Shown: one piece after another, positions 3,891-49,527 of the stretch
How the letters are laid out: every line of letters starts with the position of its first letter
Position numbering within the stretch: the first letter of the stretch is position 1
Source of the DNA: Obrimoposthia wandeli
Taxonomy: Eukaryota
Assembly: GCA_977020255.1 (NCBI GenBank)
Contig: CDROCS010001058.1
Coordinates: 124,001-188,000 of the forward strand
DNA length: 64,000 nt
Reading direction: 5' to 3'
Notes under the pieces: generated by a model
The model's input: the letters and a program-made list of their open reading frames with translations, nothing else
Database searches by the model: none
What the model was told of the DNA's origin: nothing
Translations under genes and position numbers: made by a program

Positions 3891-4539
3891 GATGATGTAG
3901 AAGCTTCCGCTGGAGTTGTATCAAAATCAATTATCTTGTTACTAGTTTCATATATGGATACATTTGATACATTCATTTTAAAAACAAATGGACATGTCGG
4001 AAAATGTATCATATGCTGCTTCATTGGTTTAAGATACCACTCCCATTCACATAATGATCCCTGACAATATACACACTTTACATTATCGGTTGAATCATCA
4101 TGTTTATAAAAGCCGGCTTTTGCTAATGCTCTTTTATCCGCTTAACCAGTAAACTTTCTTCGTAATGATCCTAATCTAGCCCGTTCGGATATCATATCTT
4201 CATTTCTTATTAAAATCTTATCAAACCAAAGTCATATAATGCTACGTTCTCCATTTCGCAAAAGATAATGTGCAACAAATTTAGTTGTCATAACAAAATA
4301 GAATGAGGAAAGTTTCAGCTTATATACTATTTGAAAATCTATTTTTAGACCGGTTTTGCGAAGTTAATACGAATGTTCAAAAATTGAAAAAAAAGTATTA
4401 AATTGCAGGTATACAAAAGGGGAATGGTATACTTAATATTTTTGTAGGATTATACAAAACATTCACTGCAATTGAAAAGGATATAAGTGCATATCTTGGT
4501 ACAAAGAGTTTCGGTAAACGGTCCAAAAATCCAAATTTT

Positions 4540-5432: not shown

Positions 5433-6850
5433 ATGTAGTGGTAGGCGTCGCTCTCGAGGTTGATATTACATTAGATGAAATAAAATATTGTTAAAATCAA
5501 ATATAATTATATTAAATAAAACAGTACCTCTGAAGCCAGACGGGAGAAGCATCACTGATGTTGGAGGCGCCATTAGTGATCTAGTCGCACTTGAAGACAT
5601 AGATGTTTCGGATTTTAAAAAAAATAATAATTTATTGGATAACTATAAATAAAATATATACAATAAATAAATATATCTTAAACCCAACGAAGAAGATAAG
5701 GCTGCAGCAGAAAATACAGCTTGTTGGAGAAGATCTTCAAAATCTTTTTCGGCGATGGCATCCATCCAACTGCCTCCGGTTGAATCATTAGAAATATCAC
5801 TGATAATCTCCATCCAGCTGTTGTTGCTCCACTGAAAACCTGGAGATTGTACATCCTCAAATGCCGACTGAGTGATTTGATCCATCCAGTCTTTGTGTTC
5901 ATTTGAGTAGTATGTTCCACCATCGCTGATGTTGTCTGTTCCTTGAAGTATGTTTGGCTGATGTCATCTATCACTTATTGTTGGAAAATGAGTCGCTGAC
6001 TCAACTGCAAGCACTTGAACTGGAAAAGAAACAGCTGAATCGATTTCGGGACCAAAACCGTTGTTGACTCAAAGTTAACTGCTGGAGCTGGAGCTGGGAC
6101 TGAACCATTTGAAGAAGTGTACACCAAATGGATTGTGGTCTTCTTCTTCTTGTTGGCTGTTAAGCTGGAGAGATAAGCCCGATGTTCAACAAAGAACACT
6201 GGATATTTATTTTCTTACATTGTTCTGCAGAACAGGCAGACGTAATACACCTGATCATAAAACTTTGTCCGATAGTAAGCAAACAAGGTTTTATGTCTAG
6301 CTTCTCCTCGGGCTTCTCCTCCAAAAATGTAAAGTTTTCTGAGAAAATAATTCATCATATATCACAACGCTCAGAGGGTTTACAATATATTTTGTGCTCT
6401 AAAGAAAGAAGATTATGGGTTCAGATGAAAAATACACTTACACTTTGCTTCTTTGTATATAATTCATTTTAATAAAGTCTCGTATATTACTTAAGTGACG
6501 CTGGTATGATACAATCGGTAAATGTAAGGACTTATTGTCAGGGAATTTTCAGAAACTTACTTTGATGGTAGGCCAAGAATCGTAAGCACCTGCATAAACT
6601 CGCATTGGTGGAATTCAAGTATCCTAGGCACTTCATCTTTCAATTTCAGTTCGGCACTTTGACTGTTGCACCATCCGCTGCCAGTAAACTTCTCTTGTGT
6701 GGTTGAAAAGTGTATGTATGTCTCAATTTGAACAATTCTAGACATATATAGATTTTACATACAAGCATACTACATACATACCTGCACGGTTTTAAAGGAC
6801 AGATATGCTCTCTATGAAGCATGGCTTGGACCAGAGACATCCACATACGT
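5433..6850 (-). mobile_element. Short Polinton derivative: TIR-like end plus a diverged copy of the Zn-finger/acidic-repeat leader gene
   Basis: ORF 5643-5885 (WMDQITQSAF..WSNNSWMEII..WMDAIAEKDF) parallels 17059-17443. AYYRTKFYDQVYYVCLFCRTM parallels AYYRTKSHELHFFVCPFCRTM near 16.9 kb. Exon donor sites match. TIR-like sequence at 6785-6849. Confidence 0.78.
6785..6849 (-). repeat. Diverged copy of the Polinton terminal inverted repeat
   Basis: CACGGTTTTAAAGGACAG...GGCTTGGACCAGAGACATCCACATAC aligns with the reverse complement of the left TIR, CACGGTTTTAAAGGACAG...GGATTAGACCGGACACATCCACCTACT. Confidence 0.62.
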
Positions 6851-13070: not shown

Positions 13071-13152
13071 AGTAGGTGGATGTGTCCGGTCTAATCCACA
13101 CCCCCTCCCCCCACTGTCCTTTAAAACCGTGTATGTGTGTGGAGTGAAATTT
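13071..13152 (+). repeat. Polinton left TIR (82 bp)
   Basis: Matches the reverse complement of 28785-28867 with two substitutions and one indel. Confidence 0.95.
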
Positions 13153-13226
13153 TCTACCACCCCACCCAACACTCAAAAAAAACTAATTAACCCCATATAA
13201 CACCGTTTAAAATTGAAAATCTCATA

Positions 13227-15027
13227 ATGCTCCCAAAAAAGTGAGGAAGGTCCAGAGAGGCCGTCTAGTTGGCCAAAGCGTGCCCTCCGGGCCCGCGGTA
13301 GTTTGACGAGCAATACATATACAGGGTCGCGAAAAAATAGTACTCGCACCAGACTCAGACGAGGAGCTATTCACCGATGACGTTCCGTCAGATGGTGAGG
13401 AGGACTTGACTCCATTCATCGACGAATGCATACAGCCAAGTATCGGAGCCCCAGGAGCCAACGATTCGATGGTGGCAGAATTGGACGAGGACGAGTGGCG
13501 CCTGTTCACCGACGATTGGGATGGTCTCACTCCCTCTACAACTCCAACTCCGATAGCCGACAATACGATGCCTGATTCGTTCAAAAGGTCGCAATCTCCG
13601 ATACGTCCTGTTAGGAGAATAAAGGCGACGAATGAGGTTAGTCTATTAATTTATTTAAAATGTTTTTTATTTTCATTTTTAGAAACTTCAACTGGATTTG
13701 GCACCGTCAGTGACCACGGTGGAGAGGCTGATTGAACTGCAGTACTAGGCGAGTCAATGTAGCCAGGATGATCTCAGGAGTGAGCAGCGATACCTACCTA
13801 TTCCGGCTAAATTTGAGGTAAATTATTATAAATTAGTTAATTATTTTAATTATTCACATAGGAAGCCGAATTGGTGGAGGAAATTTGGGAGGAGGCAACT
13901 CTCAGACTACCCGTCGATAGGAAACAAGCGGCGGTTAAGAAACCTCGACGCCATCGGGTCAAAACCCACACGGTCCATCGGAAGAAGACCAAGTTGGTGA
14001 AACAGGCTAACCTGCCCGTCATCGAGGTAAATTATTTATATTTTTAAATTTTATTTATGTTTTTTGTTGCAGGAACCAATACAATTAACTGAGGAGACAT
14101 GGGGCATAATTTCTCCTTTCCCGCAGAAGCGAACGAGGCGGGCTGCTGTACGGAAGACTAGGCGTCTTAGAAAGGCGAAATCTTGTCTGCTCAAATCGAC
14201 CGAAGTAACGATAGAGCGGCAGGAAAAACTTCCGTATCAAATTATTGAGGTAAATTTTTACATATTTAAATATTTTTTAAATAAATGAACTTTATTAAAA
14301 ATTTTATAAATGTTTTCTTTTGCAGGCACCTGTCCGGATAATTGAGGAGGCTTGGGGAGAAATTACTCATTTTACCTAGAAACGGGCGAAGCGAGCAGAG
14401 GTGAAGAAGATGAGGCGCTCGAGAAAATGTAAAACCTCAATTGGCCATTATTCTGAGGCGGTGATTGGACGGCAGGAGATTATCCCATCTCCAGTGGACG
14501 ACGGTCCAATTTTATACGAGAGGATCCCAGTCTCACCGATCGAGATTAGTCCGCCATCAAGTCAACGACACCTGCAGGAGACATCACCGGCTTCTCCTCG
14601 TCCAACAACCAGCTAGAACTTAAAGAGGGCCTGGGATGAAGCTGGTTTGGACGAATTCCTGGCGGAACTGGATACACCGGCAATGCTTTCAGATTCGCGA
14701 GGGCAACAGGATGCCGTCTCACGCCAGCTTCAGCGTGAGAAGGAGGAGAAACAGAAGAAAGCTCCGCGGAAGATGAAGGCTACTGCTTCTATGTCGGGGC
14801 CATCAACATCGGCTACACCTCCTCCCAAAATGTTGCGGCAACTATTGCCAAAACCTGAGGGAATTGCTACAAACCAACCGGTGAAGGCGAAAAAGAAACC
14901 GGGCCGGCCAAAGAAGAAGGAGCCAGTACCGCTTTCTCCAATAATACTTAGTCGGAGGGATTTCGATCCGGATGATCCCAATGATGACTTCGTAAAGATG
15001 TTTAAGAATATAATTTATAAAAATTAG
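13227..15027 (+). pseudogene. Five-exon Polinton accessory gene: acidic patch, repeated basic exon modules, AT-hook-like KKPGRPKKK, conserved C-terminal RRDFDPDDPNDDFVKMF
   Basis: GT-AG introns at 13637-13682, 13818-13861, 14027-14072 and 14250-14325. All are phase 0, all follow a GAG codon, and they join the exons in frame. A few premature stops and a probable 1-nt deletion near the start. Homologous copy at 35860-36900 (-). Confidence 0.78.
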
Positions 15028-15307
15028 TTTCATATGTTTTCTTGTTAATATTTATTTAAATACCATCTTTAAGTTTATTAAAATATCAAGATGAAAAAAA
15101 TAGTTAATTTATTCGACTGTTATTGGATTAATAAGGAATCATTTAAATTTTTTTAGGTTTAAATATAAATGCAATGATTAGTTATAGATTTATTAAACTT
15201 TCATTTGATACATAAAAATATATCATTTCATGGCTTGTGATTGGATTAAAAATGTCTTAAATTTATATATATAGGTTCAAATTTATTAACCTCTTCATAA
15301 TTAAAAA

Positions 15308-15615
15308 ATGGAATTCATTAAATTGCAAAGTTTGGTAATGAAGATAGAAGCAAACATCAGAATAAATGAGAAGAAAGGGGACTTAAGAAAGAGGGTCCTC
15401 AATCAAAATTTGTATGCTGCTGTCGCGTCCGAGTGGAATCGAGGGTGGAGATACAAGATAGGAGGCTAGCAGAACGACGTCGGATCGTGGAGTGGAATAA
15501 GAAGATCGAATTGGAAAAAAGGAAGGTGGATGAAAAAAGAAGAGAAGAGATGGAAGATGTTCGGCTAGCAGCAAGAAAGAGAATCCTCCAAATTAAACCG
15601 GAAGAGTCCGTTTAA
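15308..15615 (+). pseudogene. Small charged, coiled-coil-like Polinton ORF (frameshifted)
   Basis: MEFIKLQSLVMKIEANIR... continues after a frameshift into ESRVEIQDRRLAERRR. Homologs on - at about 35280-35495 and 38500-38570. Confidence 0.55.
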
Positions 15616-15749
15616 AAATAATTTTTTTGATTATTATTTTGTCTTTATTGATTAGGTTACATAATTGTCTAAATATTTTACATAATTGTCTAAATATTTT
15701 ACATAAGCATACTAAATATAAACAATTTTATATATAATGTTTTTGTAAA

Positions 15750-15972
15750 ATGGATAATAAAAATTGGAATAAATTATACATTAAATTATCTCCAGATTTA
15801 AAGGAAGAATATAAAAAAAAATATTTTTCAGAAAATGATACTGAGGAAATTGTTGGATATAAATTATGTAATTTAATTTCGAAATATTTAGGTATGTTTA
15901 CATTTAATATAATTTATTTAAATATTCATAGGAGAATTGACAATATATACCAATCTTAACATGAAAGACTGA
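15750..15972 (+). CDS. Small two-exon Polinton ORF of unknown function
   Basis: MDNKNWNKLYIKLSPDLKEEY...KYL, then a 40-nt GT-AG intron (15892-15931), then in-frame GELTIYTNLNMKD*. Homolog on - at about 35040-35125. Confidence 0.5.
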
Positions 15973-16779
15973 ATCCTGAGTACTTTGTTATTTTAATAAA
16001 TTTTTGATTAATGATTTTTTTCGTTATAAACAACGGGATTTGCTGCAAATTTAGATAATTATGCAGGAATATATCATAGATTTTGAGTCTTTCATTAACA
16101 AAAATGGTGATTATATTATAAAATAATTATGTATTATGGATGTATGCGACGTTTTTCATCCTTTGCATTTCATATTTCAAATAGATATCCCGTTTAAAAG
16201 TTTAGATTCTAAGAAAAAATTTACTAATTTATATCTAACTAATTACTTTTATTTATTAAAATGGAAAGAAGGACATAAGGCTTTTTGTGAAATATGTATT
16301 TTCGATACAATAAAATCTAATTTTGATATAGAAAATGGAATTTTTTATGTTTTAGATGAAATGGATGGCAAAAAGTAAAAGACTTTAAAAAAATATTTTC
16401 CCAAATTGAGGTTGAATACTTTAAATATTTCACGTGATCATCTATTAAAAATTCCACGAAATATTTGCTGTCCATATCGTAATCATGGTGACCATTGCGC
16501 ATATAAAAAATGTTTAAGTCTATCTTATTATTATTTGACATGTATATAAACAATTCTTCTAATTGGAGGAATTCATTATTAAAATTGTACAACTAATTAC
16601 AAATAAGCCTTTTGATTGGAGGAATAAAAATATTTTTTTCAACCAATAACAGATAAACAATCCTTTTCAGTGGAGGGATAAATTCAATTTTTTAATCCAA
16701 TAGGAAAAGAGCATGTGTGCATAAATTTTAGTATATAAGCAAACACTTTCTTCATTTAAATCCCCGACTATTTGAAACA

Positions 16780-17948
16780 ATGAATATGGTAAGAATCTAT
16801 ACTTATTATTTCTTTATTAATATTTATTATTTCAGATTACTTGTATCCTGTTTCCAGCATATTGTGGTGCTTCATCTCCGCATGGAGGAGAGACCTGCAT
16901 GAGATAATGTCCGCCTACTATCGGACAAAGTCTCACGAGCTTCACTTCTTCGTCTGCCCCTTCTGCAGAACAATGTAGGAGAAGGAGTTTCGAGACTTCT
17001 TCGGTGAACATCGAGCTCATCTATCCTGTTTCACGGCCAACAACAAGAAGAGGGATTAATGCGTGATTCGCAGGCCGCTCCAGCACCTGCTCCAATTCCA
17101 GTTGCAGTGATTCCATCCGTTTACGGTCCTGCCATTGGTCCTTCTCTCACGGCTCCTGATTCTGCTACTGCACCATCCACTCAAATGACTAACAATGAGT
17201 GGATGAATGACATCTCCCAGGAAGATTTTGAGGAGATGGCGCCAGCAACCCAATTCTCAAACAATGACTGGATGGAAAATATTACCCAGTCAGATTTCGA
17301 GATGGAGCAGCCTCAGTGGAGCGACAACAGCTGGTTGGAGACCATAGAGGAATCCGATTTCGTCGAGTTCACGGACGATAGCTGGATGGATTCTGTCAAT
17401 GAAGAGGACTTCCAACCAGCTACAGTTGGATTGCCTTCATTAGGTATTTTTTATTATTATTTTTCAGATTATTTTTTAAAATTGTAATTATATATATATT
17501 ATTTTTAATTAAATATATATTATTGGAATTATATATATTTTATTATTATTTTTTATTCAGGAAATACCGTGATACAGCCGTCATCCGCTACGACAGCTAT
17601 GCCTCCACCATCACGAGTGCCTAGATCGATGTTAGCACGTCTTAGAGGTAATAATATTTAAAAATATATTTATTTTTTAATATATTTATTTCAGCAGCAT
17701 CAACTTCTACAACAGCCGCTTCTTCATCGGCAATGCCAGCTACTACCTCAGCTACTCCAATTTCAAATGCAGCTTCTACAACTGACATTGACTCATCATT
17801 TGCGGCAGCATCGTTTACTACAGCTGCGATTGCCTCAACATTGGCAGCACCTACTACAGCAGCTCTTTCCACATCAGCAGCGATTGCCTCAACATCGACA
17901 TTTAATATAAATAGTTGTCTTCCCGTTCAATTAGAGCGAGTTAAGTAG
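16780..17948 (+). pseudogene. Spliced leader gene: CxxC/His motif, PAPAP linker, four acidic W(M/L)xx(I/V)xxxDF repeats, Ser/Thr/Ala-rich exons; probable N-terminus of pPolB
   Basis: Introns at 16789-16835, 17444-17560 and 17648-17694. The last two join ORF 17059 and ORF 17733 in frame. Homologous exon boundaries are present in the copies at 5.5-6.4 kb and 33.0-33.8 kb. Confidence 0.72.
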
Positions 17949-20900
17949 TGGAACGACTCTAGTTAGAATTCACGATATTAGCTTTGTTATAACAAAGTTC
18001 ACTGACATGATATATCTTTCGGGGAGTTCATACATTCCTTCACCTAAATCTCTTCAACTTTCACGTTCCATTGTTAACGTACAAAACAGTGATAACCTTT
18101 GCTTTCTGTATAGCGTGTTGGCCATCCTCAAAAGGGGTGTAATTACTGAACATAGAGAGCGTGTCAGTAAATATACCCCTTTTTTAAATGAATTGCAGTA
18201 TCATGGAATAGATTTTCCTGTTAAATTAACGGTGATATCAAGATTTGAACATCTTAATAACTGGAATATTAATGTATTCAAATATAATACTGATATCCCA
18301 GTTAATGTAACAGATGAGGAAATATTTAAAAATCCTTTTGTAGATGTAATTTGTAGGAGCAAAAATGAGGCGACTCAGGTCAACTTAATTTTGCTCGAAC
18401 AGAATAAAAAATTCCATTATGCTGCAATTCCCAATTTAGATCGTCTTCTAAATTTAGATAATGGAGCCTCACCGGTTAGGATAAGGTGTAAGTGGTGTCA
18501 TAGATGTTTGCATGGGTTCCGATCCGAGCTCTCTTACAGCAAACATCTGACATTATGTTCACTGAATCCTGATGACAATACGCTATATAGCATGCCTAAG
18601 GATAAGGATTTAAAATTCAGGGATTGGGCAAAATGCATACCCGTGGAATTCAAGGTGTATGCAGATTTTGAGTCAATTCTAGCATTGCACAACTAGTATG
18701 AGAGTATTCACCTACCGGCTTCGACAGGACTACTATTCTTAGGCCCCAATATTACACAGTGTCATAAATTTTCCGGTCTAAATTGTATTTTAGATTTTAT
18801 GTTAAAATTAGAAGAATTAGGAACAACAATTGTCAAACCGTGGTATGATCTTAATGCTCATCAAGCAATGATTATGACAGGCATAGACTGGGTTAATTTT
18901 AATTCTTGTAGATTATGTTATTTGTGTGGAACCCAGTCTAAGTTAGTCAGAGATCACGATCATGTTAAGGGGCGATACTTGGGAGCGGCGTGCAACCTCT
19001 GTAACCTTGGCCGTCGTCTCCCTAAAAAACCACGAATTCCCATCCTATTTCATAACCTCAAAGGATATGATTTGCATCATATACTTAAATATGCATTGGG
19101 TACATTAAGCTCTTGGGAAATTTCATGTATACCTCAAACTTCAGAGAAATATTTATCTTTAACTGCATATACTGAATTCTGTAGTTTAAGATTCATAGAT
19201 TCTCTGCAGTTTTTGAGGGGGTCTTTAAAAAATTTAACGGCATCTTTAAATGCATGGCCAATCACACAGTCAGTGTTCCCAGCTTTGGTTAACGATAAGG
19301 GGATTTTTCGCATAAATTTGCAAAAATCTTTGCAGATTTAGAACATACTACAGAAATCCCACCCATAACTGAATTTGAAGGTGTAAGTCTTCAAGACTAT
19401 AATAAGGCCCGTACATTTTGGGCGAATATTTGTTGAAATCTTTTAGAATATATGCTTTATTATATGAAGTTAAACATTTATCTTTTAGCTGATGTTTTTG
19501 AGTCCTTTCGTGTAAAATCTTTAGCAGAAGATGGGCTAGATCCAATGCATTTCTTTAGTTTACCTGGTCTTTCATGGGCAACAGCAATAAAAACTCTTAA
19601 AATTAATATCGAGTTATGGCTAGATCCCGCGATGTATCAAATGTATGATTATGGTATACGCGGTGGAATGACTTTTGTCAACAAACATCATGTTGTCAAA
19701 AATCAATCCACGGAGATTCTGTACATCGACATTAATAATTTGTATGGGTGGGCGCTTACTCAACTTCTACCTCATGCCAACTTTAAGTGGATTTATGACG
19801 AGGAAGAGTTGAATAAGTTGATGACAGATTTGGCTACTGTTGATACAGTTTCATCAGACATCGGCTATTTGGTTGAGGTTGACTTAACAATCCCTTCCAA
19901 AGTGCATGATAAATCAGATGATCTTCCAGTAGCGCCTGTTCATCAATGCCCACCTAATTCAAAGGTTAAGAAATTATTGTTAACCCATGAAGACAAGGTG
20001 AATTATGTTGTGCATTGGAGGCTTCTTCAATTCTACTTAAAGTTGGGAGCGAAAGTTACTCGAATTCATCGTGCTATAAGCTTCAGTCAAACCTTTGTGT
20101 TTAAAGACTATATTGAGAAGAATTCTAGAAAACGTAATTTGGCCACTAGCAAATTCGATCGGACTTTTACAAGTTAAAAAGTAATAGCCTCTTTGAAAAA
20201 ACTGTAGAGGACTTGCGGAAACGTATTTGTCTACGGTTTTGCAATGATGAGCGTAAATTAATAACATATACTAGCAAGTACAACTTCAAGCGTAGTTTTA
20301 CAATTGCAGATGACTTGGTAGCAGTGCTATTAGGAAAACAGAGTATTTGTCTCGATCGACCGAGTTATATAGGTCAAACGGTTTTAGACATTTTTAAACT
20401 CAGAATCTACGAGCTTCAATACATAGAATTAGAGAAATATCGACGAGAATTCAATTGTGAGATCAAAATCGCAGCTGGGGACACTGACTCTTTCTTTTTA
20501 GAATGTAAAAATGTTAGTTTAGATAATCAATTATTACCGGCAATGTTTAGGGACAACTTACTTAATACCCATAAATATCCCGCTAACCATCCTCTACATT
20601 CTATGAGTTTAAAGGATATTATCGGAAGATTTAAGGATGAAAGCGAGGGACAGGTTTCGTATGATGATTGTATTTTCCTACGCCCTAAATGCTACAGTTT
20701 ACATGCATCTAATAATACATGTTCAATGAGAGCTAAGGGTGTGGGAAGAAACAATCTTACACATGAGGCCTACCAGAAAGTTTATGATACTGGGTGTATT
20801 GAAAGCGTTGAGCAAACTAGATTTATTTCAAGAGCCCATCAACTGTATTCCCATAAATCAACCAAAATCGCTTTGAGTAGTAATGACGACAAGCGCTTTT

Positions 20901-20989
20901 GGGTAGAAAAGAACGCTAGCCTGGCTTATGGACACTTCAGAATTACAAAAGGTTTTCATTTTTTTGATTTTTTTAGTTTAGTTTTTTAA
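17945..20989 (+). pseudogene. polB: Protein-primed family B DNA polymerase (pPolB), broken by one nonsense codon and two frameshifts
   Basis: GSSYIP..IVNVQNSDNLCFLYSVLA (terminal-protein region); YADFES (ExoI); HNLKGYDLHHI (ExoII); CYLC..VRDHDH..GAACNLCN (EndoVII-like insert); LADVFESFR (ExoIII); YIDINNLYG (motif A); KSNSLFEK (motif B); GDTDS (motif C); FLRPKCY. Confidence 0.95.
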
Positions 20990-21211
20990 AATTTTAGATC
21001 CCTATGGCACCTTGACTCTAACTTTTTGTTATTTCAAAACATTTTTTAGGTTGGACCTTATCTTTGCTGACAGATCTCATTGTGATGTTGTGTTTAATAA
21101 ATGTATTAAAAAAATTTCGTCTTATGTCTTTTATTATTTTACCCTTATATTTTTAGAGATTTAAAAAATAATTCAAAATAAAACATTAAAAATATTTATT
21201 TTTATAACACA

Positions 21212-21594
21212 CTAATCGTTTTGCAACGATAACCATAAAATACATAAATATCCACAGTTTCTCGTCGCAGGATCCTGATATTGTATCTTATTGTAAAATA
21301 CTCTTCTTCGTCCTTTTAGAATAGTTGAAACAAGTTTGATAATGGATAATACATTGCAAGTGGATCAAATACATGTATTGTCCACTCTCTAACATAAATA
21401 GCTATCCAATGTTCTCCTGGTAAATTCGAAGTATGAGTATTGATAATGTAACCTCCAGATTGAAAAAATGGAATCATATCAATAGGATAAACTCCATTGA
21501 ATTTATCACCCAGGACCTTCTCTGCTGATTCTTGTACTTGTACTGAACTAAATAAAAATTAATAAATATAAATTTAAAAAATGTCTTACTTCAT
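21212..21594 (-). pseudogene. Adenain-like cysteine protease with a 42-nt intron after codon 2 (one frameshift)
   Basis: ATG AA, then intron GTAAGA...TTTAG (21589-21548), then T TCA GTA CAA gives MNSVQVQESAEKVLGDKFNGVYPID...INTHTSNLPGEHWIAIY...FDPL. After the frameshift: QYQDPATRNCGYLC. Catalytic His, Asp, Gln and Cys are visible. Confidence 0.88.
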
Positions 21595-21595
21595 T

Positions 21596-22821
21596 CTATA
21601 ATATGACAGTTCTGTTTTTATTGATTTGTATTTCCGAATCAAACACTCCGTAAATAAGCACCGTAGTAGGATGTGTTAAAGCTGCATTGAACTTAATTTC
21701 TAGTCGTAAATTTCCATCCTTTGGTAGTTGGCATTGGTTTATATCAAAGTCTGGTACCAAAACAAATGTGAAGAAGGGGCAGCTGCTTTTAAACTCAGTG
21801 AAAGAAATACCATTGTTTATATTTTTATCTAGTTGGCTCAAATTCCAAACAATATATTGCGTATAAGCCAAAGCATAAGCATTACCTTCGAAATCTGTTT
21901 TATATGTTTCGCGATAATCAGTATTTCTTGAAAGTGTCACTGAACCTACATTAAGATTCTCAAATTGAGTTTCATCTGTCGTATAATCTCCTAGATACTT
22001 TGCAGTTTTTTGAAAAGAAATTAAAATGAATTTCGGTAATTTTACATAACCAAAATTTGATCCTTATTAAAAGCTTGTGTACCCGTACCTAATGAGTAGG
22101 ATATAAGTTTAGTTTCTCTAATAGGATAACAAGCATTGTTTTTTTCCATTCCTATATTATGTGCCATTAAAACTGATTGCTCGGTTTTAACTCTTCGGAC
22201 ATACAATTTTTCATCCAAAATATCAAGTCTAGGTTTTAGAACGTCCGTGCTTATCAAAGAAAAATTCCATTTATTACGTTTCAAACGAAGATGTACATTA
22301 ACACCGGAAATTAAATATTTCGGTTGTTCAAAGAAATTCAATCTCAAAGACCCACACATTTCGTAAGCTTTAGAACCTGCAATCCATTCTTTCCGAGTTG
22401 CGACCGTTTTATCATAACGAATGGTTGCCAAATTGGTATTTTGAGTATCAGTACTATAATTCAAAAGACTTTCAATCAAAGCTTTATGAGCATAGGAAGA
22501 ATTTCCACCTTCAATTTTGACATTATTAAGAGTAACAATGGCATCACTAAATAAAGAATTAAAGAGATAATTTACAGGTGTTACATCTGCATTTTCATCT
22601 AAATTAGTGCCATCCCGATTTAATACTTTTATTTGAACATAAAGCAAAGTATCATTCAAATCTAAATACTCACTATTGGAACCATTAATATTAAATTCTA
22701 AATCAGTTAAAGTGGTTCCTGAAACTGAGTTAACTAGAAATATTTCTTCAAAGGAAGCATTATCTACAACTACTTGTGGAAGTGGTTTATAAAAATTACA
22801 CAATTCGGTTTTGGCGGAACT
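21596..22821 (-). pseudogene. Major capsid protein (double jelly-roll, hexon-like); start codon lost and one frameshift
   Basis: SAKTELCNFYKPLPQ..LEFNINGSNSEYLDLNDTLLYVQIKV..YAHKALIESLLNYS..QPKYLISGVNVHLRLKR..LPKFILISFQ..GNLRLEIKFNAALT..VLIYGVFDSEIQI, typical of Polinton MCP. Confidence 0.92.
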
Positions 22822-23198
22822 CTTTTTGCAAATATTGTTCCTTCAGCTTTCTTACGTTTGTTTATATTGATTTTTTGCTTATTTTTACTTTTAAATCCAC
22901 TACCTCCTTGGCTTTTATTTGATTTACGTTTTCTAATCAAATTAGCAACTTCAGGTAAAACATTATCAAGTTCATCAAGCGCATGCTTCTTAAAAGTTGG
23001 TATTAGTTTATTGTCCTTAGATGAAAGGTAGTCCTTTCCTAATTTTGATATAAATCGCCCGAATCTCTTTAAAAGAGGAAAGGCAAATCTACCTAATGTT
23101 CTAAGCCAGCCAGATCCGTATTGTTTACCAACAAAATATGGTAATTCTCCACCTTGTTGGCTTTGACTATAAGCTTCAATTATTGCTGGATTCGCCAT
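22770..23198 (-). CDS. Putative virion core / membrane-active protein with QxG(G/S) protease-cleavage-like motifs
   Basis: SQQGGELPYFVGKQYGSGWLRTLGRFAFPLLKRFGRFI (amphipathic segment) and a basic C-terminus. Homolog at about 52640-53030. Confidence 0.75.
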   Translation of the reverse strand: MANPAIIEAYSQSQQGGELPYFVGKQYGSGWLRTLGRFAFPLLKRFGRFISKLGKDYLSSKDNKLIPTFKKHALDELDNVLPEVANLIRKRKSNKSQGGSGFKSKNKQKININKRKKAEGTIFAKRVPPKPNCVIFINHFHK

Positions 23199-24240
23199 TT
23201 TGTTTTCTTAAATGTATTGTTAAACTTGTCTTGGCCCCGTACGTGAAATCTATTAGTTGTCCGGAATCATCTCTAATATTTACTTCAATATTGTTTATGG
23301 AAAAGAGAGAAACTGGAAGATACATTGGTTGATCTATACACATACCGACAGTGTCCCCATCTCTAGTTTCATTTTTAGATATCCATATTGTTCTCAAAAG
23401 TGGAACTCGCTGTCCTCCTACAAGCGTTGGTTCTATTAAATTAGTATAAATATATAAATGATTAACAGCATTTAAAAGTTTTGCATTATTTTTAGCTTTT
23501 ATGGTTTTTATTTTATGGGTTTCAAAGGTATTTCTGTTTAAACCAAGGTTTTTAGCGAGTTAATCAACAAATAAAACTCATATTATATTTCTCTTTACTG
23601 TAAACGTTATTTTACCATTTCTTAATGTTACACATTTATCGAAATATTCACTACATTCCTTCTGTATTAATTTACAGAAATTCACTTCACTATCTAATTT
23701 ATAATCTTTTGAAAACATTTTCAGTTCCACTACATACTTTGGTCTCGTTTCAACTAAAAACACTTTTGTTACTCTATCAGGAACATTTTTAAACGATTTA
23801 GATGAGGCTATATCAGATCTCTTCATACCTACTACATGTCCACTGTCAAAACCGAATTGAAGAGCTTCTCTATCAGATCCAAATATAATTTGAATAGGTT
23901 TTGAAAAATGTTTTAGTCGATTTTTAAATCTGACTTTGTTTTTTTCATATATTACTTTCACTACTTTATCTATACAATTGTAATAGAATTTTCCTTTACT
24001 ATCAAACCCAATCACAACTTCAATTGATTTTTCATGATCAACTTCTTTAGTAAACGAAATATGTGAGTTTTTCTTGATAGTAATTAGAGAATAATAAAAG
24101 GAAAATTCTGTTAAAGCCGCTTCCCATTCTCCTTGGAGATTTATAGGATTTTCCCAATCGATAATAAAGCTACTAGCGTAATTATCTGGTTGAGTATTTG
24201 GACATCCGTTACTAGGTAAAACCATATACATAGACTTCAT
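23176..24240 (-). pseudogene. Minor capsid protein (single jelly-roll, penton-like), disrupted
   Basis: MYMVLPSNGCPNTQPDNYASSFIIDWENPINLQGEWEAALTEF at the N-terminus; PMYLPVSLFSINNIEVNIRDDSGQLIDF..TSLTIHLRK at the C-terminus. Confidence 0.88.
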
Positions 24241-25265
24241 ATTATATTAGATGCTGATAACCAAGTTGGATCTGAATAACCATGCCATTTAACATAGTAT
24301 TGTTTATGTTTACCGGCACCCTTAGATTTTAATATTTTTGAATACGGAAAACGCTAGGTTTATTTGATATTATTTGTAGTTTTTGCTCGTAAAATTTACA
24401 GTGAACGATATTATTGTCAGCATCTTTAATAGTATACATTATTGGATTACTCTTTTGATCAATTTTACTTATACAAAATATTTCATCGCTCCATTTCTGA
24501 TCAAAGTTTTTAATAAATGGAGTAGAGCTAATTTTCGAAATTCGGACATATTCGTTTTTCTTATATTTAGCTTTTTTAATATTTTCTTTTTTATTCCTGT
24601 CCATCCAAATATCCATAGAATTTTTATTAGTAACATCAACAGGTCTCATTCCCTTGAGACCTCTATGTTCCGAGTGATTATATGCATGTATTATTTTAGG
24701 TAAAACGTGGATCCATTTTTTTATTTCCTTCTTTTGTGAAATACTTTTTTATTCGATCTCTTAAAGTACGATTAAATCTTTCTACTACTGCTGCATTATA
24801 CTGTGAAAACACAGAGTAATGATTTATATTATTTTGTTTAAATAAAGATTGAACTTGCTTATTATAAAATTCTTTTCTTAAATCAGTTTGCACATTTTGT
24901 GGAATGTCCTCTTTTAATATTTCTTTAATGGCTTTAAGCATAGCTATTGAAGACTGTGCTTTAACTGGAATTGCACGAGCAAACCTGCTAAATACATCAA
25001 TACATGTTAAAATATATCGGTATCCCTTATTAATGGAAGAATATGAGATCATCTCCATCAAATCCATTTGCCATAAATTATTAGGGCCGCTGGTTTTGTA
25101 AGCTCTAGTTGGAAACCTTCTTCTCATCGGCTTGTTCAGACTGTAGGCTAGCTGGTCGCTCAGCCATTTCTGCGTTTTCTTGTAATTTTGTTTTGTTCTG
25201 TTTGCTAATTTTGAAACTCCTGTGTAGCCAATTGGATCTTTTGGATGGAACCATATCTTCTCCAT
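24238..25265 (-). pseudogene. Retroviral-like (rve) integrase with chromodomain-like C-terminus, frameshifted
   Basis: WQMDLMEM (D), VQTDLRKEFYN (D), AAVVERFNRTLR (E); WSDEIFCI; KQYYVKWHGYSDPTWL. Its stop codon overlaps the mCP ATG. Confidence 0.93.
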
Positions 25266-25350
25266 TACTACAATTTGAATAGAAAAAAAAATTAATTTAG
25301 GTAAAGAAGGGCTAGCACCTATATCTTTAACTGATTTTATAAATAATTGT

Positions 25351-25645
25351 TTATGAACGTGTCGCAGCTATAATACTACTGATAATTGAAGCAACAACTG
25401 GAATAACAGCCCCTATGAAACCACCATTCTGTTTTACTTTAGCAATATCTAGAAGAGGTTTTCTATATTTCTTTAATATATTTTTCCGATTTCCAACTTT
25501 TACTCGACCCAAAACTATAATATACAAAACTGCCAATAAATCATATACAACAAAAGATGGAAATGCTTTAGAATAATCGTTCTCTTATGAGAAGAGGCTT
25601 TGACTAAAGCTTTAAAATAGGGTATGCTTCTTTGTATTTCTTCAT
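25351..25645 (-). pseudogene. Conserved small Polinton protein ending QNGGFIGAVIPVVASII (frameshifted)
   Basis: MKKYKEAYPI..KALVKASSHKRTIIL..VLGRVKVGNRKNILKKYRKPLLDIA..QNGGF followed by a hydrophobic helix. Confidence 0.65.
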
Positions 25646-25676
25646 TTTAATAAAAAAGGTTCAATTTGAATATTGT

Positions 25677-25817
25677 TTATATTCGAAGCCATTTAAGTTT
25701 TTTTTTATTTCTAACTACAGATTTGATTAATTTTTTCACTTCTTTTTTCTTAATGATTCTTTTTTTTGATTTTTTAGGCTTTGCTTTACGTTTTACTATC
25801 AACTTCTTAAAATGCAT
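25677..25817 (-). CDS. 46-aa highly basic (23/46 K+R) protamine-like protein, below the ORF-track cutoff
   Basis: MHFKKLIVKRKAKPKKSKKRIIKKKEVKKLIKSVVRNKKKLKWLRI*, packed between the ATPase and the QNGG protein. Confidence 0.6.
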   Translation of the reverse strand: MHFKKLIVKRKAKPKKSKKRIIKKKEVKKLIKSVVRNKKKLKWLRI

Positions 25818-25824
25818 TGTAAAT

Positions 25825-26462
25825 TTATCTTTTATGATTGTTCTCTATTTGTTTATAAACAGTTACTCCCTTAGAATTAAATATGTCGGTTAAAACACGT
25901 AAATCATCTGGGTAAGCTTGTGTAAAGTCAATAAATATATACCCATGTGCTTGTTTAGCAGCATCGTGGAATGAATCAACTAGAAAGTTCTTATTTTGGG
26001 GAAATGCCTGTTTGGCCACGAAATCAACAACTGTTTGATCTCTAGGATTTTTAAATAAAACTAAGTAATGTGCATTAAGATTTCTTGTTCTATGGTGACC
26101 TCTTTGGTGAAAAAGATTTTGAGTGACTGTTACTTCACGATGTCTTGAAATCTTCGTAAATAAATGATTAAAGTCTGATTCCTTGTTAGCTTCTTTATAC
26201 AAATCATCAATTATTATTACATCTTCTATTTCAATCTTTCACACCAATTTGCATCAAATCCTTCAATAAATTTTATACCCTTCAACTTGCAAACTTCTGT
26301 TTTGGTTAATCTGCTTTCCCCTCCTCCACCATGATGCCAATAAATATTTTTGAAACTAGATTTGAAAAGAGATTCATTTTGCAACAATTTACATACGAAA
26401 TGTGTCTTTCCACTTCCACTGGGACCAACTATTTGAAATACAGAATTATTATTTAGCTCCAT
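25825..26462 (-). pseudogene. A32/FtsK-like packaging ATPase, frameshifted
   Basis: Walker A IVGPSGSGKT; Walker B region IDDL; SRHREV..QNLFHQ..RTRNLNAHYLVLFKNPRD..HGYIFIDFTQ. Confidence 0.93.
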
Positions 26463-26499
26463 TGCATATACTCTTTCATTTTTAATATTGTTTATATTA

Positions 26500-26781
26500 T
26501 CATAGAAGTTTCCTTATTGAAATGTACAATGTTAGAGCTATTGTAGAAGAAATACAAAAATTAATTAATGAATATTTGGTTATAATTTTATTTATTTGTG
26601 TACGATTTCTAAATTCTCGAATAACGTGCGATCTAACCAATATTTCAATGTTATCTCTTGTTATATCAGTATTTTTTAATTCTGATAAAATTTCTTTACC
26701 CCTAATTTTTCCAGAAAATATTTCGTCGGCAAGACGATCCACTTCATTGTCTCTATTTATAGTATTATTCATTTGAAACAA
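26500..26781 (-). CDS. 93-aa Polinton ORF with a C-terminal hydrophobic segment, unknown function
   Basis: Intact ORF in the same operon-like run; C-terminus YSLINFCISSTIALTLYISI. Confidence 0.45.
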   Translation of the reverse strand: MFQMNNTINRDNEVDRLADEIFSGKIRGKEILSELKNTDITRDNIEILVRSHVIREFRNRTQINKIITKYSLINFCISSTIALTLYISIRKLL

Positions 26782-26800
26782 TAAGTTTAAACGGGTTTCT

Positions 26801-27167
26801 TTATATAAAAGATAATAAGATGTAATAAGATATATTTTCTAAAATCAAATCAAAAATGTCTGGATAATCGAATCTTTTCAATCCCAATATCATAACTTTA
26901 CCACTGGAAAATATATTTACACATAGCGATTTTAACTTCAAATAACTGAGAGTAGGAAAAATTTCTGGTTCAAACATGCATTCTTCTTTTATTTTCTCTG
27001 CAGTTTTTAAAAGATTTATATGTTTCCCAAGATTAGCCAAAATCGTGATTGATTGTATTAAAATTGTCAAACTTTTCCACATATTGTCTCGGCTTCCATT
27101 CATTGAATGGTAAGTACGAAACATCATCTTCTGTTCTACCTTTATAATTTATATTTACGAGTTTCAT
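26801..27167 (-). pseudogene. TATA-box-binding protein (TBP)-like gene carried by the Polinton
   Basis: IQSITILANLGKHINLLKTAEKIKEECMFEPEIFPTLSYLKLKSLCVNIFSSGKVMILGLK aligns by eye with a TBP core repeat (IQN.V...DL...I.L...YEPE.FPGL.Y....LLIF.SGK.VITGAK). The upstream frame gives MKLVNINYKG..LPF..KPRQYVEK. Confidence 0.72.
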
Positions 27168-27416
27168 TAGACTAAAATTGTATTCTATAAAATCTTCTTT
27201 ATATATGTCTGAACCTGCTTTTTTATTGCACGTTTCTTGTAATTATCTTGCAAACCTATTATAATTGGATGATATATTTCTTCCAATAAAATTTGATTTT
27301 TAATATGGATTTAGTCCAATCAAATTCAATGCTTTAGTTATATTAACCAATGAGATTCATGTCTTTGTTAGAAATTAGTATAAAAGAATGCGCCATTGGA
27401 GGAAAAATCACAGTAA

Positions 27417-27877
27417 ATGCATTCATATCAAAGACAATTATCAACGATGGACGATAGCCAACGGGTATTAAGCGATGATAAAGATATAGAAATGTTTGAA
27501 GAATCGGATAAGGATATGTATGAAGAAGTGAAACAATATTTCAAATACAAAGTCAGATTCTTGAAGAAGGCTCAACTGATTGCTTTAGTAAATCCTGTGA
27601 CAATTGAAAGAAGAAAGTTCAGCTACTATCTATCAAATATTCAAAAATCAGATTTTCAATATCTTAAACAGAAAGTTGAAAAGGCAGCAACGAATTTTAT
27701 ATCCGAGGAGCCGATGAAGCATTTCTAGATGACTATGGAAAATATGTTGATTTTGATGCGTTTCCGAAAAAGAAGCAATGGACTCTAACAATTCGACTTT
27801 ATGGTTACAAGAAAGATGAAATGGGAACAAAGTTGCCTATGTGGAAAATTGAACGTGCTCATATTTCTATGTTTTAA
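27417..27877 (+). pseudogene. Polinton ORF, paralog A of a tandem pair (frameshift near 27707)
   Basis: LKKAQLIALVNPVTI...SDFQYLK, then after the frameshift QWTLTIRLYGYKKDEMGTKLPMWKIERA. Similar to 28027-28437. Confidence 0.6.
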
Positions 27878-28026
27878 CTTTTTTATTTTGCGTGTAATAA
27901 ATTGTAATCGGTTTTACTATGTTTCTTTCATTTGGCAATTAATAATCAGTTTTATTTTTTAAATATTTGTATATTATATGTATTTTTTTATAAACATTGT
28001 TTTTTAATCAGTTTCCTTATTTTAGA

Positions 28027-28437
28027 ATGGATTCTCTTCTGAGATGTGTAGCAAATTTTTATTATCCAGAAAGAATTTCAAAAGGAAAACTATGTAATAT
28101 ATTAAAGAGGCATCAAATTATACGAGTTAGGAATCCTGTGAAAATATCAAAAGTGGAGAATAAATATCTCATCGAAATTTTAACCACATCTGATATTGAT
28201 CAATTGAAAAATATTTTGGGAATTTACATTCCTGATTATGTATATGAAGGAAATTGTTTCCAGCTTGAAATTGATCCCAGTCTGGATTTTAAAGATGATC
28301 TAGGATATTTGATTGCTCCAATTCTAGATGAAGAACTATGGAATATCTCAATACGTCTCAATGGATATTTTGCTGATGACGGGAAAATGCAGCCTCTTTG
28401 GACTTTGAGTGACGCCAATATGTTAATTTATGTTTAA
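28027..28437 (+). CDS. Polinton ORF, paralog B; possible OB-fold ssDNA-binding protein
   Basis: LKRHQIIRVRNPVKI...SDIDQLK...LWNISIRLNGYFADDGKMQPLWTLSDA. The fold assignment is inference only. Confidence 0.6.
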   Translation: MDSLLRCVANFYYPERISKGKLCNILKRHQIIRVRNPVKISKVENKYLIEILTTSDIDQLKNILGIYIPDYVYEGNCFQLEIDPSLDFKDDLGYLIAPILDEELWNISIRLNGYFADDGKMQPLWTLSDANMLIYV

Positions 28438-28784
28438 TAAATATTTTGAAAAATAATTTTGTCTCGTATTTTGTTTTTTCTCCTCTAAATTATATAGATC
28501 TGATCAATTTTTTATCCTATAAATTCTAAAACTGACATAGATATTTTAAAAAAACATGTAGTAATTTATTAATCTAAAATCTTTCTTAAAAATAGTAGTA
28601 ATATATTATTTGAAATCTCGTCTGCGATAAGCCGCCGGGGCCAATATGGATTCCCGTGGTCTTCTCTAACCACTTTTTAGATTCGCAGTAAAATTTTTAA
28701 AAATTGTGGTGGGGGGCCCTTCCTTCCCCCTTTGGGTAGAATGGAGACATACATACACGAAATTTCACTCCACACACATGCACG

Positions 28785-28867
28785 AAATTTCACTCCACAC
28801 ACATACACGGTTTTAAAGGACAGTGGGGGGAGGGGTGTGTGGATTAGACCGGACACATCCCTCTACT
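28785..28867 (-). repeat. Polinton right TIR (83 bp), with an adjacent ~25-bp subterminal duplication at about 28752-28805
   Basis: Inverted match to 13071-13152. CAT(A/G)CACGAAATTTCACTCCACACA occurs twice in tandem. Confidence 0.95.
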
Positions 28868-30800: not shown

Positions 30801-33800
30801 GCCTCAATTATGAATATTATGAGGGGAACAAGATTCATATCCATTGAAGATGTTTCTTGAAAAATTAATCTGGAATACCCTGAAATGAAACAAAGTATGT
30901 TTTCAGCTTTTATTCCCAAGTTGAAAATTCCTAAATATCAAGACAAATAAATATTGTAATTTTCACGACATTCTTAGCCACCTTGATGATTCTTCCTGAT
31001 TTAATTTGACGTTCGAACGGGATTGGCAGTAGTTTCTGGCTTTCTGGATTTGCAATATCTTCGTTTACTTCCTTCGACATCAGTTATCTTGTTGATTCTG
31101 TATCGATTTTCTCGTATGGGTGCTTTATGCTCGCAAAATAAGGCGATAAAATAATAATTAGCTTTGCCTCTTTCACTGAACGTTCGTTCATCATTTCAAA
31201 CAATTCTTATGCATAATGTTTATGTCTGGTCTTGTTAGAAATGTTTGTATATATATTCCAAAAACATAAAATCGAGAATTTAAACAATCGATCATGCGAA
31301 GACTTACTTGGGGTTATGCATACCAGAAATGGGATTGAGCTTTAAGCATGATTCAGTACAAGCTCCCAATAGCGTTTATTCAACATACATTCATTATTTA
31401 GTGTCTTCGTAACAAATTCGTGTATTAATTTATCAGAACAATATATAACACGATATCTAACGATCTTTTGTGATCTCCCGAAAATATTCTCTCAGTTTTT
31501 GTTTATATAAATAACACTGAATGATTCAGTTTTTCACCATAAAATTTTCTCGTTTGTTTAACCAATCCATCTAGTATCTGCTGCTCATCATCATTATCTA
31601 CTAGGTACTGTTCCACTCTGCTGAAGACAATAGACTTATCTTAGTTGAAGAGTCTCCAGCTTTCTTATTTTACATAACTTGTATCATCCTTTCTTTGTTA
31701 TATATATATATATTTGTAGAAACATTCTTACGACATTGACGATGATATGCGCATTAAGATCTTACGATGGTTTGAAAATAGTGGTTCTTAATTCCTATAA
31801 TTTTAATATAAAATCTAAAAGTACAATTTGAACCAGAAATTTTATGATACTGGGTTATATTGGCCTAAGAATAATAGTCCTGCCATACTGTTGTGCAAAG
31901 CTAAATTTTTCAAAATCAGCATACACCCTAAATTCAACGATAGCACATTTTGCCAATCTCTAAATTTTATATTTTTATCCTTTGACATACTGTACAACAC
32001 ATTGTCATCAGGATTCAGTGTACATAATTTCAAATGTTTGCTGAATGGGAGCTCAGATCTGAATCCATACAAACATCTATGATACCACTTACACATTATC
32101 CTAACATGTAAGGCTGCATTGTCTAAATTTAGAAGATAATCTAAATTGCAAATAGCTGCAAATTTATTGTTGGGCTCAAGCAAAATTAAGTTGACTGGAG
32201 TCCCTTCATTTTGCTCCTGTGAATTACAAATGCAAAAGGATTTTTAAAATTTCATCCAGTGTTATATTTTCTGGAATATCGGTATTATATTTGAATACAT
32301 TAATACTCAAGTTATTCATGTGTTCAAATTTAGATATCACAATTTCATTTAGAAAAGGAGAATATTCTCTTTGCTCAGTAATTACAGCCATTTTAAGGAT
32401 GGCCAACATGCTATACGGGAAACAAAAGTTATCACTGGTTTGTACGTTAACAATAGAACGTAACACTTGAAGAGATATAGGTGAGGAAATTTATGAACTC
32501 CCCGAAAGATAAATCATATCAGTGAACTTTGTTAAAACAAAGTTAACACCGTGAATTCTAACTAGAGTCCATCCACTACTTAACTCGCTTTAATTAACAA
32601 GTTTTTCATCTAAATTTATTCCTATATTAGTTACAAAGTTATCACAAAATACTGTAGCCCTATGTGAAATTATTCAAGTTTTAGTTTCTTCTTTTACATT
32701 TTTAAACTGAACTGTTGCACAAAATTTTACCTTAGTATGTCTTAATTTAGTCACTTTTGATTTTAAAAGATTCTCAATATTTGAATCTATACTTACATTC
32801 ATTAATATTTTATTATCCATAGGCAACTTTACTATAACATATTTATTATTTCGGTGATTTTTAATATTTGTACCGTTTTTCTACGTATTTTGGGTAGGGC
32901 CATATTTAAAAAATTGGCCTCGTCTTTTTCTGCATACCATCGCCGACAAACCTCCCTCTAATTGAACTGGAAGTCCACTTGTGGTTGATGTCGAGACTAC
33001 GGTAACTAATGTTGATACTGCGGCTGATGTTGGTTCTGCAGTTGAAGAAGTGAATCGGGTCATTCTGAATGCTGTTCTAGAAGATGGTGGTGCTGCCTCT
33101 GACGATAATGTCGTTAAATACATAGCTGCTGAATAAATAAATTTCAATAAATATATTATATATTATAATTTATAACAGATTACTTCTTAATCTAATCAAC
33201 ATAGACCCTGGCGCCACCATCGATGATCGAGACTTTGGAGTTCAGGACTCTAAACCTCGGGATGTGATTGCATTTGAGGCCTATAGTGTAGATTATGCAG
33301 CTGCTGAATAAAATATATTAATTAAATTATATATTTTAAACATTACCTCTAAAGCTTGTAAACAACAACTTAAGCACTCGAGGCATCATATATGGGGGGT
33401 CATGCTAGCCGTTGCAGAGTAAGTCACCAGTGTTGACTGCTTTCCAAATAAATATATATAATATTAAATAATGTATGTGACCCATTTACTTAAATGGAAA
33501 AAACATAATAAATAATCAAATCTGAAACCCAATTAAGTAGATCCAACTGATACTGCAGATTGTTGGGGGAAAAGGTATTCTTCGTCAATGGCATCCATTC
33601 GGTTTTCATCGGTCAGCTGAAAATCGGATAAGCCGATTTCGTCCAACCAGCTGTTGTCGCTCCATGAAGATGAAGGCTCTCTATTTTGAAATCCGACTGG
33701 GTTATATGATTCATTCAGTTGTTGTTCGAGAGTTGAGTTGCTAGATCCAACTTACCGGATACTCCTTGTCTTCCATAACGAGAAGATGTAACATACCTAC

Positions 33801-39919: not shown

Positions 39920-40343
39920 CCTATAGTTATTTGTCAAGTTGAACGTTATAAGAATTATTTTATTCCTTTCTGGAAATACAGAGATTAATATTAAGTATTA
40001 GTTATAAAATAATTTTAAAGTAAAAATGATTATTTTTATTTTAACAATATAATGTATATTTATTACAAATATAATTTGTTTATATAAATAAACTAATTTT
40101 AATGTTTCAAAAAAGGTTTTTCAAATAAATTTTTGAAATAATTATATTTCAGTAGCTTTATAAATAATATATTTTTAGATTATTTAAACATACCTTTAAA
40201 TAGTGCAAATATTTAACATCATATTTCTTAATATTTAAAGTTTAATTTTATCTAGAATCAATTAATTAAAATCATATTACAATATTTTTGCTTTAAACTA
40301 TATAACTTTTATTTCAAGTTGTTTATTTTTTGCAGTATTAGTT

Positions 40344-49300: not shown

Positions 49301-49527
49301 CCTCAGCGCCAGCTGTTTCAGCTGCTCCCACATTCATCTACTCTCAGCTGCCCGTCAACGACGACAACAGCTACCTCATGGATAGTTTCGTTGTACCCGA
49401 CAATTACACGTCTCCGGTAGCCGCTGGCCACAAAAGATTACGTCCTCGCAATGATACTCTTCTAGATGCAAGTACCATGGATCTGCAGAAGAAGTTCAAG
49501 AGAATACGAAGAGATTCATCTGACTAG
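40344..49527 (+). CDS. FANCM: Fanconi anemia group M helicase/translocase, 7 coding exons, ~1277 aa
   Basis: Exons 40344-40792, 42111-42360, 43223-43786, 44981-45145, 45393-45629, 46482-46672 and 47550-49527 all have GT-AG boundaries and sum to 3834 nt in frame. Motifs: [100 protein letters not shown], and C-terminal MM3-like [21 protein letters not shown]. An acceptor at 40335 suggests a possible upstream exon. Confidence 0.95.

Follow-up and report, generated by a model that had tools for sequence, protein, structure and literature searches.

A predicted spliced leader with a Cys/His domain and acidic repeats ahead of the terminal protein and pPolB of an animal Maverick

How the genes of a Maverick might be switched on after excision or entry is the question raised by a locus of Obrimoposthia wandeli, at which the polymerase gene appears to begin with several additional exons; a zinc-plus-acidic leader on the priming protein would be a concrete and cheaply testable candidate answer. 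The window analysed, i.e., the whole stretch of 64,000 nucleotides from contig CDROCS010001058.1 (positions 124,001 to 188,000 of the forward strand), contains one complete element and two older copies of the leader:

13071..28867, no strand assigned: complete Maverick/Polinton of 15.8 kb, with TIRs starting AGTAG and the 6-bp TSD CGCATT
5520..6350, minus strand: older, decayed leader copy with Cys/His domain, acidic repeats and donors
31747..33790, minus strand: older, decayed copy with acidic repeats, linker exons, NLS-like motif, TP and vOTU region, in this order

The element that carries the leader belongs to the Polintons/Mavericks and its polymerase to the Polinton/Maverick pPolB family. 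The TIR arms lie at 13071-13152 and 28785-28867, and CGCATT flanks the element on both sides. It encodes a retroviral-type (rve) integrase (PF00665, E 1.3e-12, at 24696-25364) and a pPolB that matches PF03175 above the cut-off in two pieces, the gene being broken in the window copy. The match to the DJR capsid is weak (PF21738, E 5.8e-4, below its cut-off), and for the packaging ATPase a Walker A motif was read directly near 26420 on the minus strand, with no Pfam match for the piece scanned. In the host genome of 1.35 Gb, this Maverick family is present at very high copy number: the acidic exon gave 150/150 scored matches, at 91-100% identity, among 12,697 candidates, and the zinc (Cys/His) domain 150/150 among 21,485 candidates, both counts being lower bounds rather than copy numbers. 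A Maverick expansion has also been reported for a flatworm genus (10.64898/2025.12.11.693146).

The leader is predicted to consist of four exons, which would place roughly 300-350 residues ahead of the terminal protein (TP). All its features in the window copy are on the plus strand:

16732..16737, plus strand: TATA-like box about 45 nt 5' of the start codon, in a similar context in most copies; putative promoter
16780..16788, plus strand: coding part of exon 1, 9 nt, three codons (Met-x-Met), ending in phase 0
16789..16835, plus strand: predicted intron 1, 47 nt, GT-AG, phase 0; not listed in the preliminary description of the locus
16836..17060, plus strand: 5' part of exon 2 with an unclassified Cys/His domain, broken in the window copy
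17068..17184, plus strand: Pro/Ala-rich (PAPAP) linker, weakly constrained (dN/dS 0.81-0.84)
17185..17418, plus strand: four acidic W-[ML]-x2-[IV]-x3-DF repeats, predicted to be an acidic activation-domain-like region
17444..17560, plus strand: predicted intron 2, 117 nt in the window and 52-123 nt in copies, phase 1, GT-AG, GC 0.07
17561..17647, plus strand: exon 3, 87 nt, Ser/Thr/Pro-rich
17648..17694, plus strand: predicted intron 3, 47 nt, phase 1, GT-AG, GC 0.06
17695..17934, plus strand: start of the last exon, a Ser/Thr/Ala linker of variable length ending LPVQL
17934..17935, plus strand: site of a 368-bp genomic deletion in the window copy; other copies have the NLS-like motif and most of the TP domain here
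17935..18030, plus strand: remaining C-terminal part of the TP domain, with a Ser-Ser-Gly loop as the expected site of the linking residue (position inferred from PMC11071308)
18031..20989, plus strand: vOTU-like region (candidate Cys 18100 and His 18415), exonuclease and pPolB palm, interrupted by a stop at 18694 and by two changes of frame

The preliminary description had joined the acidic exon to two Ser/Thr/Ala-rich exons via the introns at 17444-17560 and 17648-17694, and both introns have GT-AG borders, are in phase 1 and leave one open frame. The donors it had placed in other copies were likewise recovered on the minus strand, namely TTCAGAG/GT at 5534 and TTTAGAG/GT at 33353. In some copies, exon 3 is duplicated together with intron 3.

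The window copy of the leader-pPolB gene is dead. Its exon 2 is damaged by a 1-nt gap near 16901, a TAG at 16976 and a 10-nt gap near 17055, and, judged against four single copies, 368 bp have been lost at 17935. The missing segment comprises RKRR-x9-KKRR and most of the TP; the former we take to be an NLS-like motif, and this basic motif ahead of the TP is an addition to the architecture as originally drawn. A reading of the 368-bp gap as an intron was rejected, since its ends are not GT-AG and the segment is coding in other copies.

The suggestion that the leader runs into pPolB holds, hence, for related copies and fails for the window copy itself. In the 33-kb copy, GLPVQLEGG, KVKFCATVQFK and SSGWTLVRIH are found, as had been stated, in one frame with three stops. 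Across the genome, the last leader exon is in frame with the TP in 20 of the 35 mappable copies other than the window, and nine of these are stop-free. The first set from which these figures derive, the 30 best acidic-exon loci, contained 23 mappable loci; without the window, 12 of 22 are in frame with the TP motif (4 stop-free), the copies not in frame being mostly off by 1-2 nt or affected by deletions. In the second set of 20 copies, picked on the zinc domain, 13 were mapped, with 8 in frame and 5 stop-free. A conserved stop between leader and polB, which the preliminary description had named, together with a separate promoter, as speaking against the fusion, was not seen across the mapped copies, the only stop shared between leader and TP being that of one near-identical pair.

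Conservation of the splice sites points in the same direction. The donor GT is kept in 29/30 (intron 1, with one unmapped), 27/30 (intron 2) and 24/27 (intron 3) mapped loci, and the acceptor AG in 24/24, 22/24 and 25/28, respectively; in a further 20 copies, GT, AG and the length of 47 nt of intron 1 are kept in 17. Intron 2, by comparison, occurs in 15 lengths of 52-123 nt, which are spread across all three phases (7/9/8 copies). Exon 3 measures 87 nt in 20/24 mapped copies and in 16/16 of the second set, exon 2 has a length of 3n+1 in 16/24 and 12/17 copies, respectively, and the linker part of exon 4 one of 3n+2 in 13/15 copies of the second set. Reading through any of the introns leads to a stop within 4-38 codons. 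Splice sites and phases of the predicted introns are, then, conserved while intron length drifts, which is indirect evidence of splicing. The older copies, with donors recovered in only 6 of 30 loci (four of them in phase 1), are too thin a sample to be used here. In reads of unrecorded kind, from four runs of one sample, the introns of copy L007 are covered, and none of the 15 joints listed (there are 190 more) falls at an intron, an outcome from which nothing follows as to expression. Intact vertebrate Mavericks have been described as intronless (PMC8097293); introners are present in dinoflagellate polinton-like elements (PMC11957031), so that the mere occurrence of introns in elements of this kind has a precedent. 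The predicted presence of spliceosomal introns in the polymerase gene of an animal Maverick family that has reached very high copy number implies that ORF-based annotation would miss the N-terminus.

What had been described as a CxxC/His motif is present at the start of exon 2, its scope being larger than a mere motif: it is part of a whole domain of about 70 residues with eight ligands in the arrangement C-x5/6-C-x4/5-H-x4/5-C ... CPxC ... F-x3-H-x2-H. In an alignment of 16 rows, H16, C21, C41, P42, C44, F55, H59 and H62 are invariant, and two further Cys are missing only in two later-starting rows. The AlphaFold2 model is compact (pLDDT 77, pTM 0.63). Nothing above cut-off was found for the domain in Pfam, NCBIfam or PHROG, a blank that does not prove a new fold. 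Fold and profile searches likewise gave nothing clear (best E 1.0 for Foldseek against PDB, E 2.3 for BFVD, Z 3.1 for VIA, E 0.6 for the PDB profile search), the best ESM Atlas score of 0.78 was no usable match, and a scan of IMG/VR returned 12 pattern matches, 0 of which were confirmed. In an alignment search among long proteins, 0 of 8000 scored. With no family or fold match at hand, two zinc sites are deduced from the ligand pattern only. The domain constitutes an unannotated family that is worth a structure.

Independent evidence for the connection of the Cys/His domain to pPolB comes from distant relatives. P0001, found with a TP-region query, is an uninterrupted pPolB of 1303 residues at 39% identity, the first 70 residues of which match the exon-2 Cys/His domain (pairwise E 1e-8); behind these residues come a low-complexity linker, a basic motif and the TP. 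With exon 2 as query, 23 clusters at 50% identity were obtained, nearly all of them via the Cys/His domain; many have two to three tandem Cys/His domains and three have C2H2 fingers. Among 46 proteins examined, eight carry the Cys/His domain and the TP in one frame (P0001, P0010, P0012, P0021, P0023, P0040, P0043 and P0044), while a ninth protein with the domain, P0025, stops where the TP begins. A quick tree built on the TP-vOTU region places the window family and seven of the eight in a group of 13 rows (SH-aLRT 100), with P0010 outside; for five rows of this group, the recorded protein lacks a Cys/His domain.

The region downstream was compared with published pPolBs, for which the order TP-vOTU-EXO-PALM has been described, as has a TP with a little-finger fold in which a Ser close to Gly is located between helix 2 and the last strand (PMC11071308). 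The TP segment, modelled from one natural copy, resembles a Y-family little finger (best Z 7.9, rmsd 2.4, 93 aligned, 4IR1); the top seven rows of the fold search are all Y-family polymerases, a Z under 8 being on its own only moderate. Ser137 of the TP is invariant in 9 rows. In the vOTU, a conserved Cys (DNLC) and His (HY) are at the expected place, with fold-search rows that span residues 29-160 only.

Taken with frame continuity, splice sites and phases, the distant relatives make it very probable that the Cys/His domain, the PAPAP linker, the acidic repeats, the second linker and TP-pPolB form one polypeptide, in the order originally proposed; the uninterrupted relatives lack the W repeats.

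The four repeats have their W at 17200, 17269, 17332 and 17383. The spacing W-x8-F occurs seven times in the six frames of the window, always inside the three leader copies; in 40 shuffles it was counted 0 times in 38 and once in 2. None of the 46 proteins examined contains W repeats, which have therefore been seen only in this genome. Neither W repeats nor a leader tile obeying the activation rule given below were found in the eight uninterrupted Cys/His-TP relatives, and hence the acidic module is not general.

Within the host, the repeats have a longer record. Among 30 older loci, at about 50-70% identity, none departs from the order zinc domain, repeats, TP; 13 loci have all three parts, 8 and 4 have two, and 5 have repeats only. 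The dN/dS, calculated over all pairs among copies, with the repeats measured in copies chosen on another region, is 0.22 for the acidic repeats (bootstrap over loci 0.16-0.31; 17 copies picked on the zinc domain) and 0.45 for the zinc domain (0.37-0.54; 28 copies picked on the repeats), as compared to 0.45 for the exonuclease, 0.51 for the palm, 0.54-0.67 for the TP and 0.81-0.84 for the Pro linker. Since the copies are related and decaying, these values are not independent and the intervals are too narrow; the low value of the repeats is owed partly to deeper synonymous divergence. As judged from these comparisons, the acidic repeats are old within the host genome and under purifying selection. 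A three-repeat variant, found in 5/20 copies, lacks exactly one 23-codon unit and has other in-frame indels.

A function of the repeats can be approached via published rules for acidic activation domains. According to the revised Kotha-Staller rule (39-residue tile, charge -13 to -8, W+F+L >= 6; PMC10550315), 33 of 107 tiles qualify; the rule is unspecific, with a published precision of about 0.2 to 0.7, and also fires in folded pPolB regions (23/1055 tiles of P0002). A second point of reference is the acidic string that binds the PH domain of TFIIH p62, in which an acidic run is followed by an aromatic residue and a Val three places on (PMC10345426). The repeat units of the window end FEEM, FEME, FVEF and FQPA, while older copies have FEDV, FEEV or FEKV at repeat 2, like ADFEDV of that report. 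A TFIIH p62 PH domain is encoded by the host genome.

In polintons, synthesis is primed by the TP, which remains attached to the 5' end, and the vOTU has been proposed to cut between the TP and itself (PMC11071308). For the window family, splicing of the four exons would give a polyprotein of Cys/His zinc domain, Pro linker, acidic W/F repeats, Ser/Thr/Ala linker, NLS, TP, vOTU, exonuclease and palm. The TP would prime via a Ser and remain on the 5' ends; with a single vOTU cut between TP and vOTU, the whole leader would stay on the DNA ends and might act there in the manner of a small transcription factor fixed to the linear genome. Its NLS could aid nuclear import, the zinc domain could bind to DNA, to chromatin or to a protein of the host, and the acidic repeats could recruit host coactivators or general transcription factors, upon which the element's own genes would start. 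Composition and selection suggest to us, with a probability of roughly 0.45, that the leader has such an activator role, i.e., that it is a transactivator or chromatin-engaging module that stays with the TP on the genome ends. A second cut could release the leader from the TP.

E1A of adenovirus is spliced. E1A and the adintovirus Oncoid have in common with the window family a zinc-binding CxxC beside disordered acidic stretches, there in a viral regulator (PMC8502044); they are, however, stand-alone proteins defined by LxCxE, whereas the leader is fused to a polymerase and LxCxE is absent from the exon-2 translations of copies. Parvovirus NS1, a replication protein linked covalently to the 5' ends of the genome and, in addition, a transactivator of a viral promoter (PMC8127782), works alike by analogy; it is an unrelated rolling-circle nuclease-helicase for which no homology is claimed. 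The adenovirus TP/pTP, which has a bipartite NLS and is believed to retain incoming genomes inside the nucleus (PMC8036708; PMC6146703), shares a homologous TP fold according to a published model, but its gene is separate from that of the polymerase and, unlike the window family, it has no known zinc or acidic repeat leader. By analogy with these two proteins, the leader might assist in import, anchoring and first transcription.

With the polinton pPolBs described in PMC11071308, the window family has domain order, TP little-finger fold, Ser near Gly, pPolB motifs, TIRs, 6-bp TSD and rve integrase in common; it differs by the predicted spliced leader with zinc domain and acidic repeats ahead of the TP. 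Extra domains on the pPolB of polinton-like elements are known as well, i.e., an SF1 helicase-pPolB fusion in OmPLV (PMC12721341) and fused HNH and VSR domains in pPolB2 (10.1101/2023.08.22.554363). These are enzymes, whereas the leader described here is a regulatory-looking zinc and acidic module that is N-terminal to the TP and would be assembled by splicing. No description of a zinc or acidic leader on a polinton pPolB was found in the titles, abstracts and passages searched; leaders of this kind might be annotated in Repbase, in the genome maps of PMC8502044 or in the figures and tables of PMC11071308. Within this scope, the putatively spliced leader with its unclassified zinc domain is undescribed.

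The alternative that survives best accepts the fusion and assigns another task to the acidic repeats, namely to serve as a docking site or decoy for factors of replication and repair (RPA, TFIIH in repair, or as a DSS1-like DNA mimic) and, thereby, to assemble or protect the protein-capped ends while strand-displacement synthesis proceeds. The repeats are on a replication protein and would sit at DNA ends; also, their W-x8-F spacing is reminiscent of DSS1/Sem1. Acidic-aromatic strings serve repair factors, too (PMC10345426). We nevertheless consider such a docking role unlikely, given that closely related pPolBs replicate without these repeats and that the distant relative P0048, in which unrelated acidic repeats together with two C2H2 fingers precede the TP in one frame, shows a pairing that is more transcription-factor-like.

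Somewhat less probable still is a free, E1A-like early regulator, either made with pPolB and then cut off by the vOTU or a capsid protease, or made alone via retention of intron 2. Read-through of intron 2 does stop after 14 codons and an ATTAAA is found at 17508 in the intron, but the read-through tail shifts frame with a variable T run and with intron length, and ATTAAA is expected by chance in an intron of 93% AT. A cut site might lie within the long low-complexity linker. Several homologues have been recorded as stand-alone Cys/His proteins of 80-133 residues; these, however, often end in intron-like tails, as might come from an intron-blind gene caller.

Very improbable, finally, is a leader that forms a gene of its own upstream, or that is tolerated as an appendage, with pPolB starting in the last exon: one Met early in this exon (in the one copy examined), the start of P0002, P0041 and P0042 just ahead of the TP, and the vertebrate Mavericks reported as intronless (PMC8097293) would fit it, whereas the mapped copies with no shared leader-TP stop beyond the near-identical pair, the eight one-frame relatives and the selection on repeats and zinc domain stand against it.

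Returning to the tethered activator, its extension to a wider principle, by which Maverick TPs carry interchangeable regulatory leaders and that of the window family activates transcription while covalently attached to both ends of the genome, is tentative and in our view rather doubtful. If true, it would account for the way in which a Maverick, once excised or newly arrived, begins to express its genes with no earlier gene product at hand. The wider principle draws on P0048 together with P0003, P0052 and P0053, which have C2H2 fingers at the N-terminus; from these leaders, the slot before the TP seems to take interchangeable nucleic-acid-binding or acidic modules.

Within the genome, the linker of the leader grows by whole exons through duplication of the 87-nt Ser/Thr/Pro-rich exon 3 together with the 47-nt intron 3, which is found in five loci (L002, L006, L022, L024 and L029). 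Among the database proteins compared, P0048, an ENA protein of 773 aa, has a pPolB N-terminus without interruption, in which acidic-aromatic repeats of its own and two C2H2 fingers both precede the terminal-protein domain (TP); this N-terminus is an independent parallel to the acidic-repeat leader. Four Cys/His proteins of 80-120 residues (P0015, P0016, P0019 and P0024) stand alone and have intron-like tails; they are possibly the first exons of spliced leaders from other hosts. A different type of leader, made of short helical repeats that we take to be HeH/Rho-N in appearance, lies ahead of the TP in P0051, P0066, P0071 and P0073; a Pfam scan of three of these four gave no match.

Further features of the window and of the same genome are the following.

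480-4000, forward: decayed retrotransposon pieces, presumably Pao/BEL-like
7525-12285, reverse: open frame of 1586 residues
13226-15027, forward: second gene with introns in the Maverick element
16040-16550, forward: 179-residue frame 5' of the leader, also at L020:324-863
about 35880-36900, reverse: relative of the second intron-containing gene
40266-49527, forward: host gene, its exons presumably those of a FANCM/Mph1-like helicase
50500-54000, forward: additional, more distant Maverick fragment
L061:1447-2445: host TFIIH p62 N-terminal region (basis, PF08567), one open frame of 332 residues

The 179-residue frame, interrupted in the window copy, gave no match in a Pfam scan; its D-x-E start resembles that of an exonuclease. 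The second intron-containing gene of the Maverick element comprises three mutually similar exons that carry a Trp motif together with runs of basic residues, as well as Trp/Leu acidic motifs close to each end and an AT-hook-like stretch, and is a candidate early regulator. Outside this element, the more distant fragment retains integrase pieces and capsid-like ones and is ~66% identical to it, and the 1586-residue frame contains about six tandem repeats of 85 residues each, which are rich in Lys/Arg/Ser and 94-97% identical at the DNA level.
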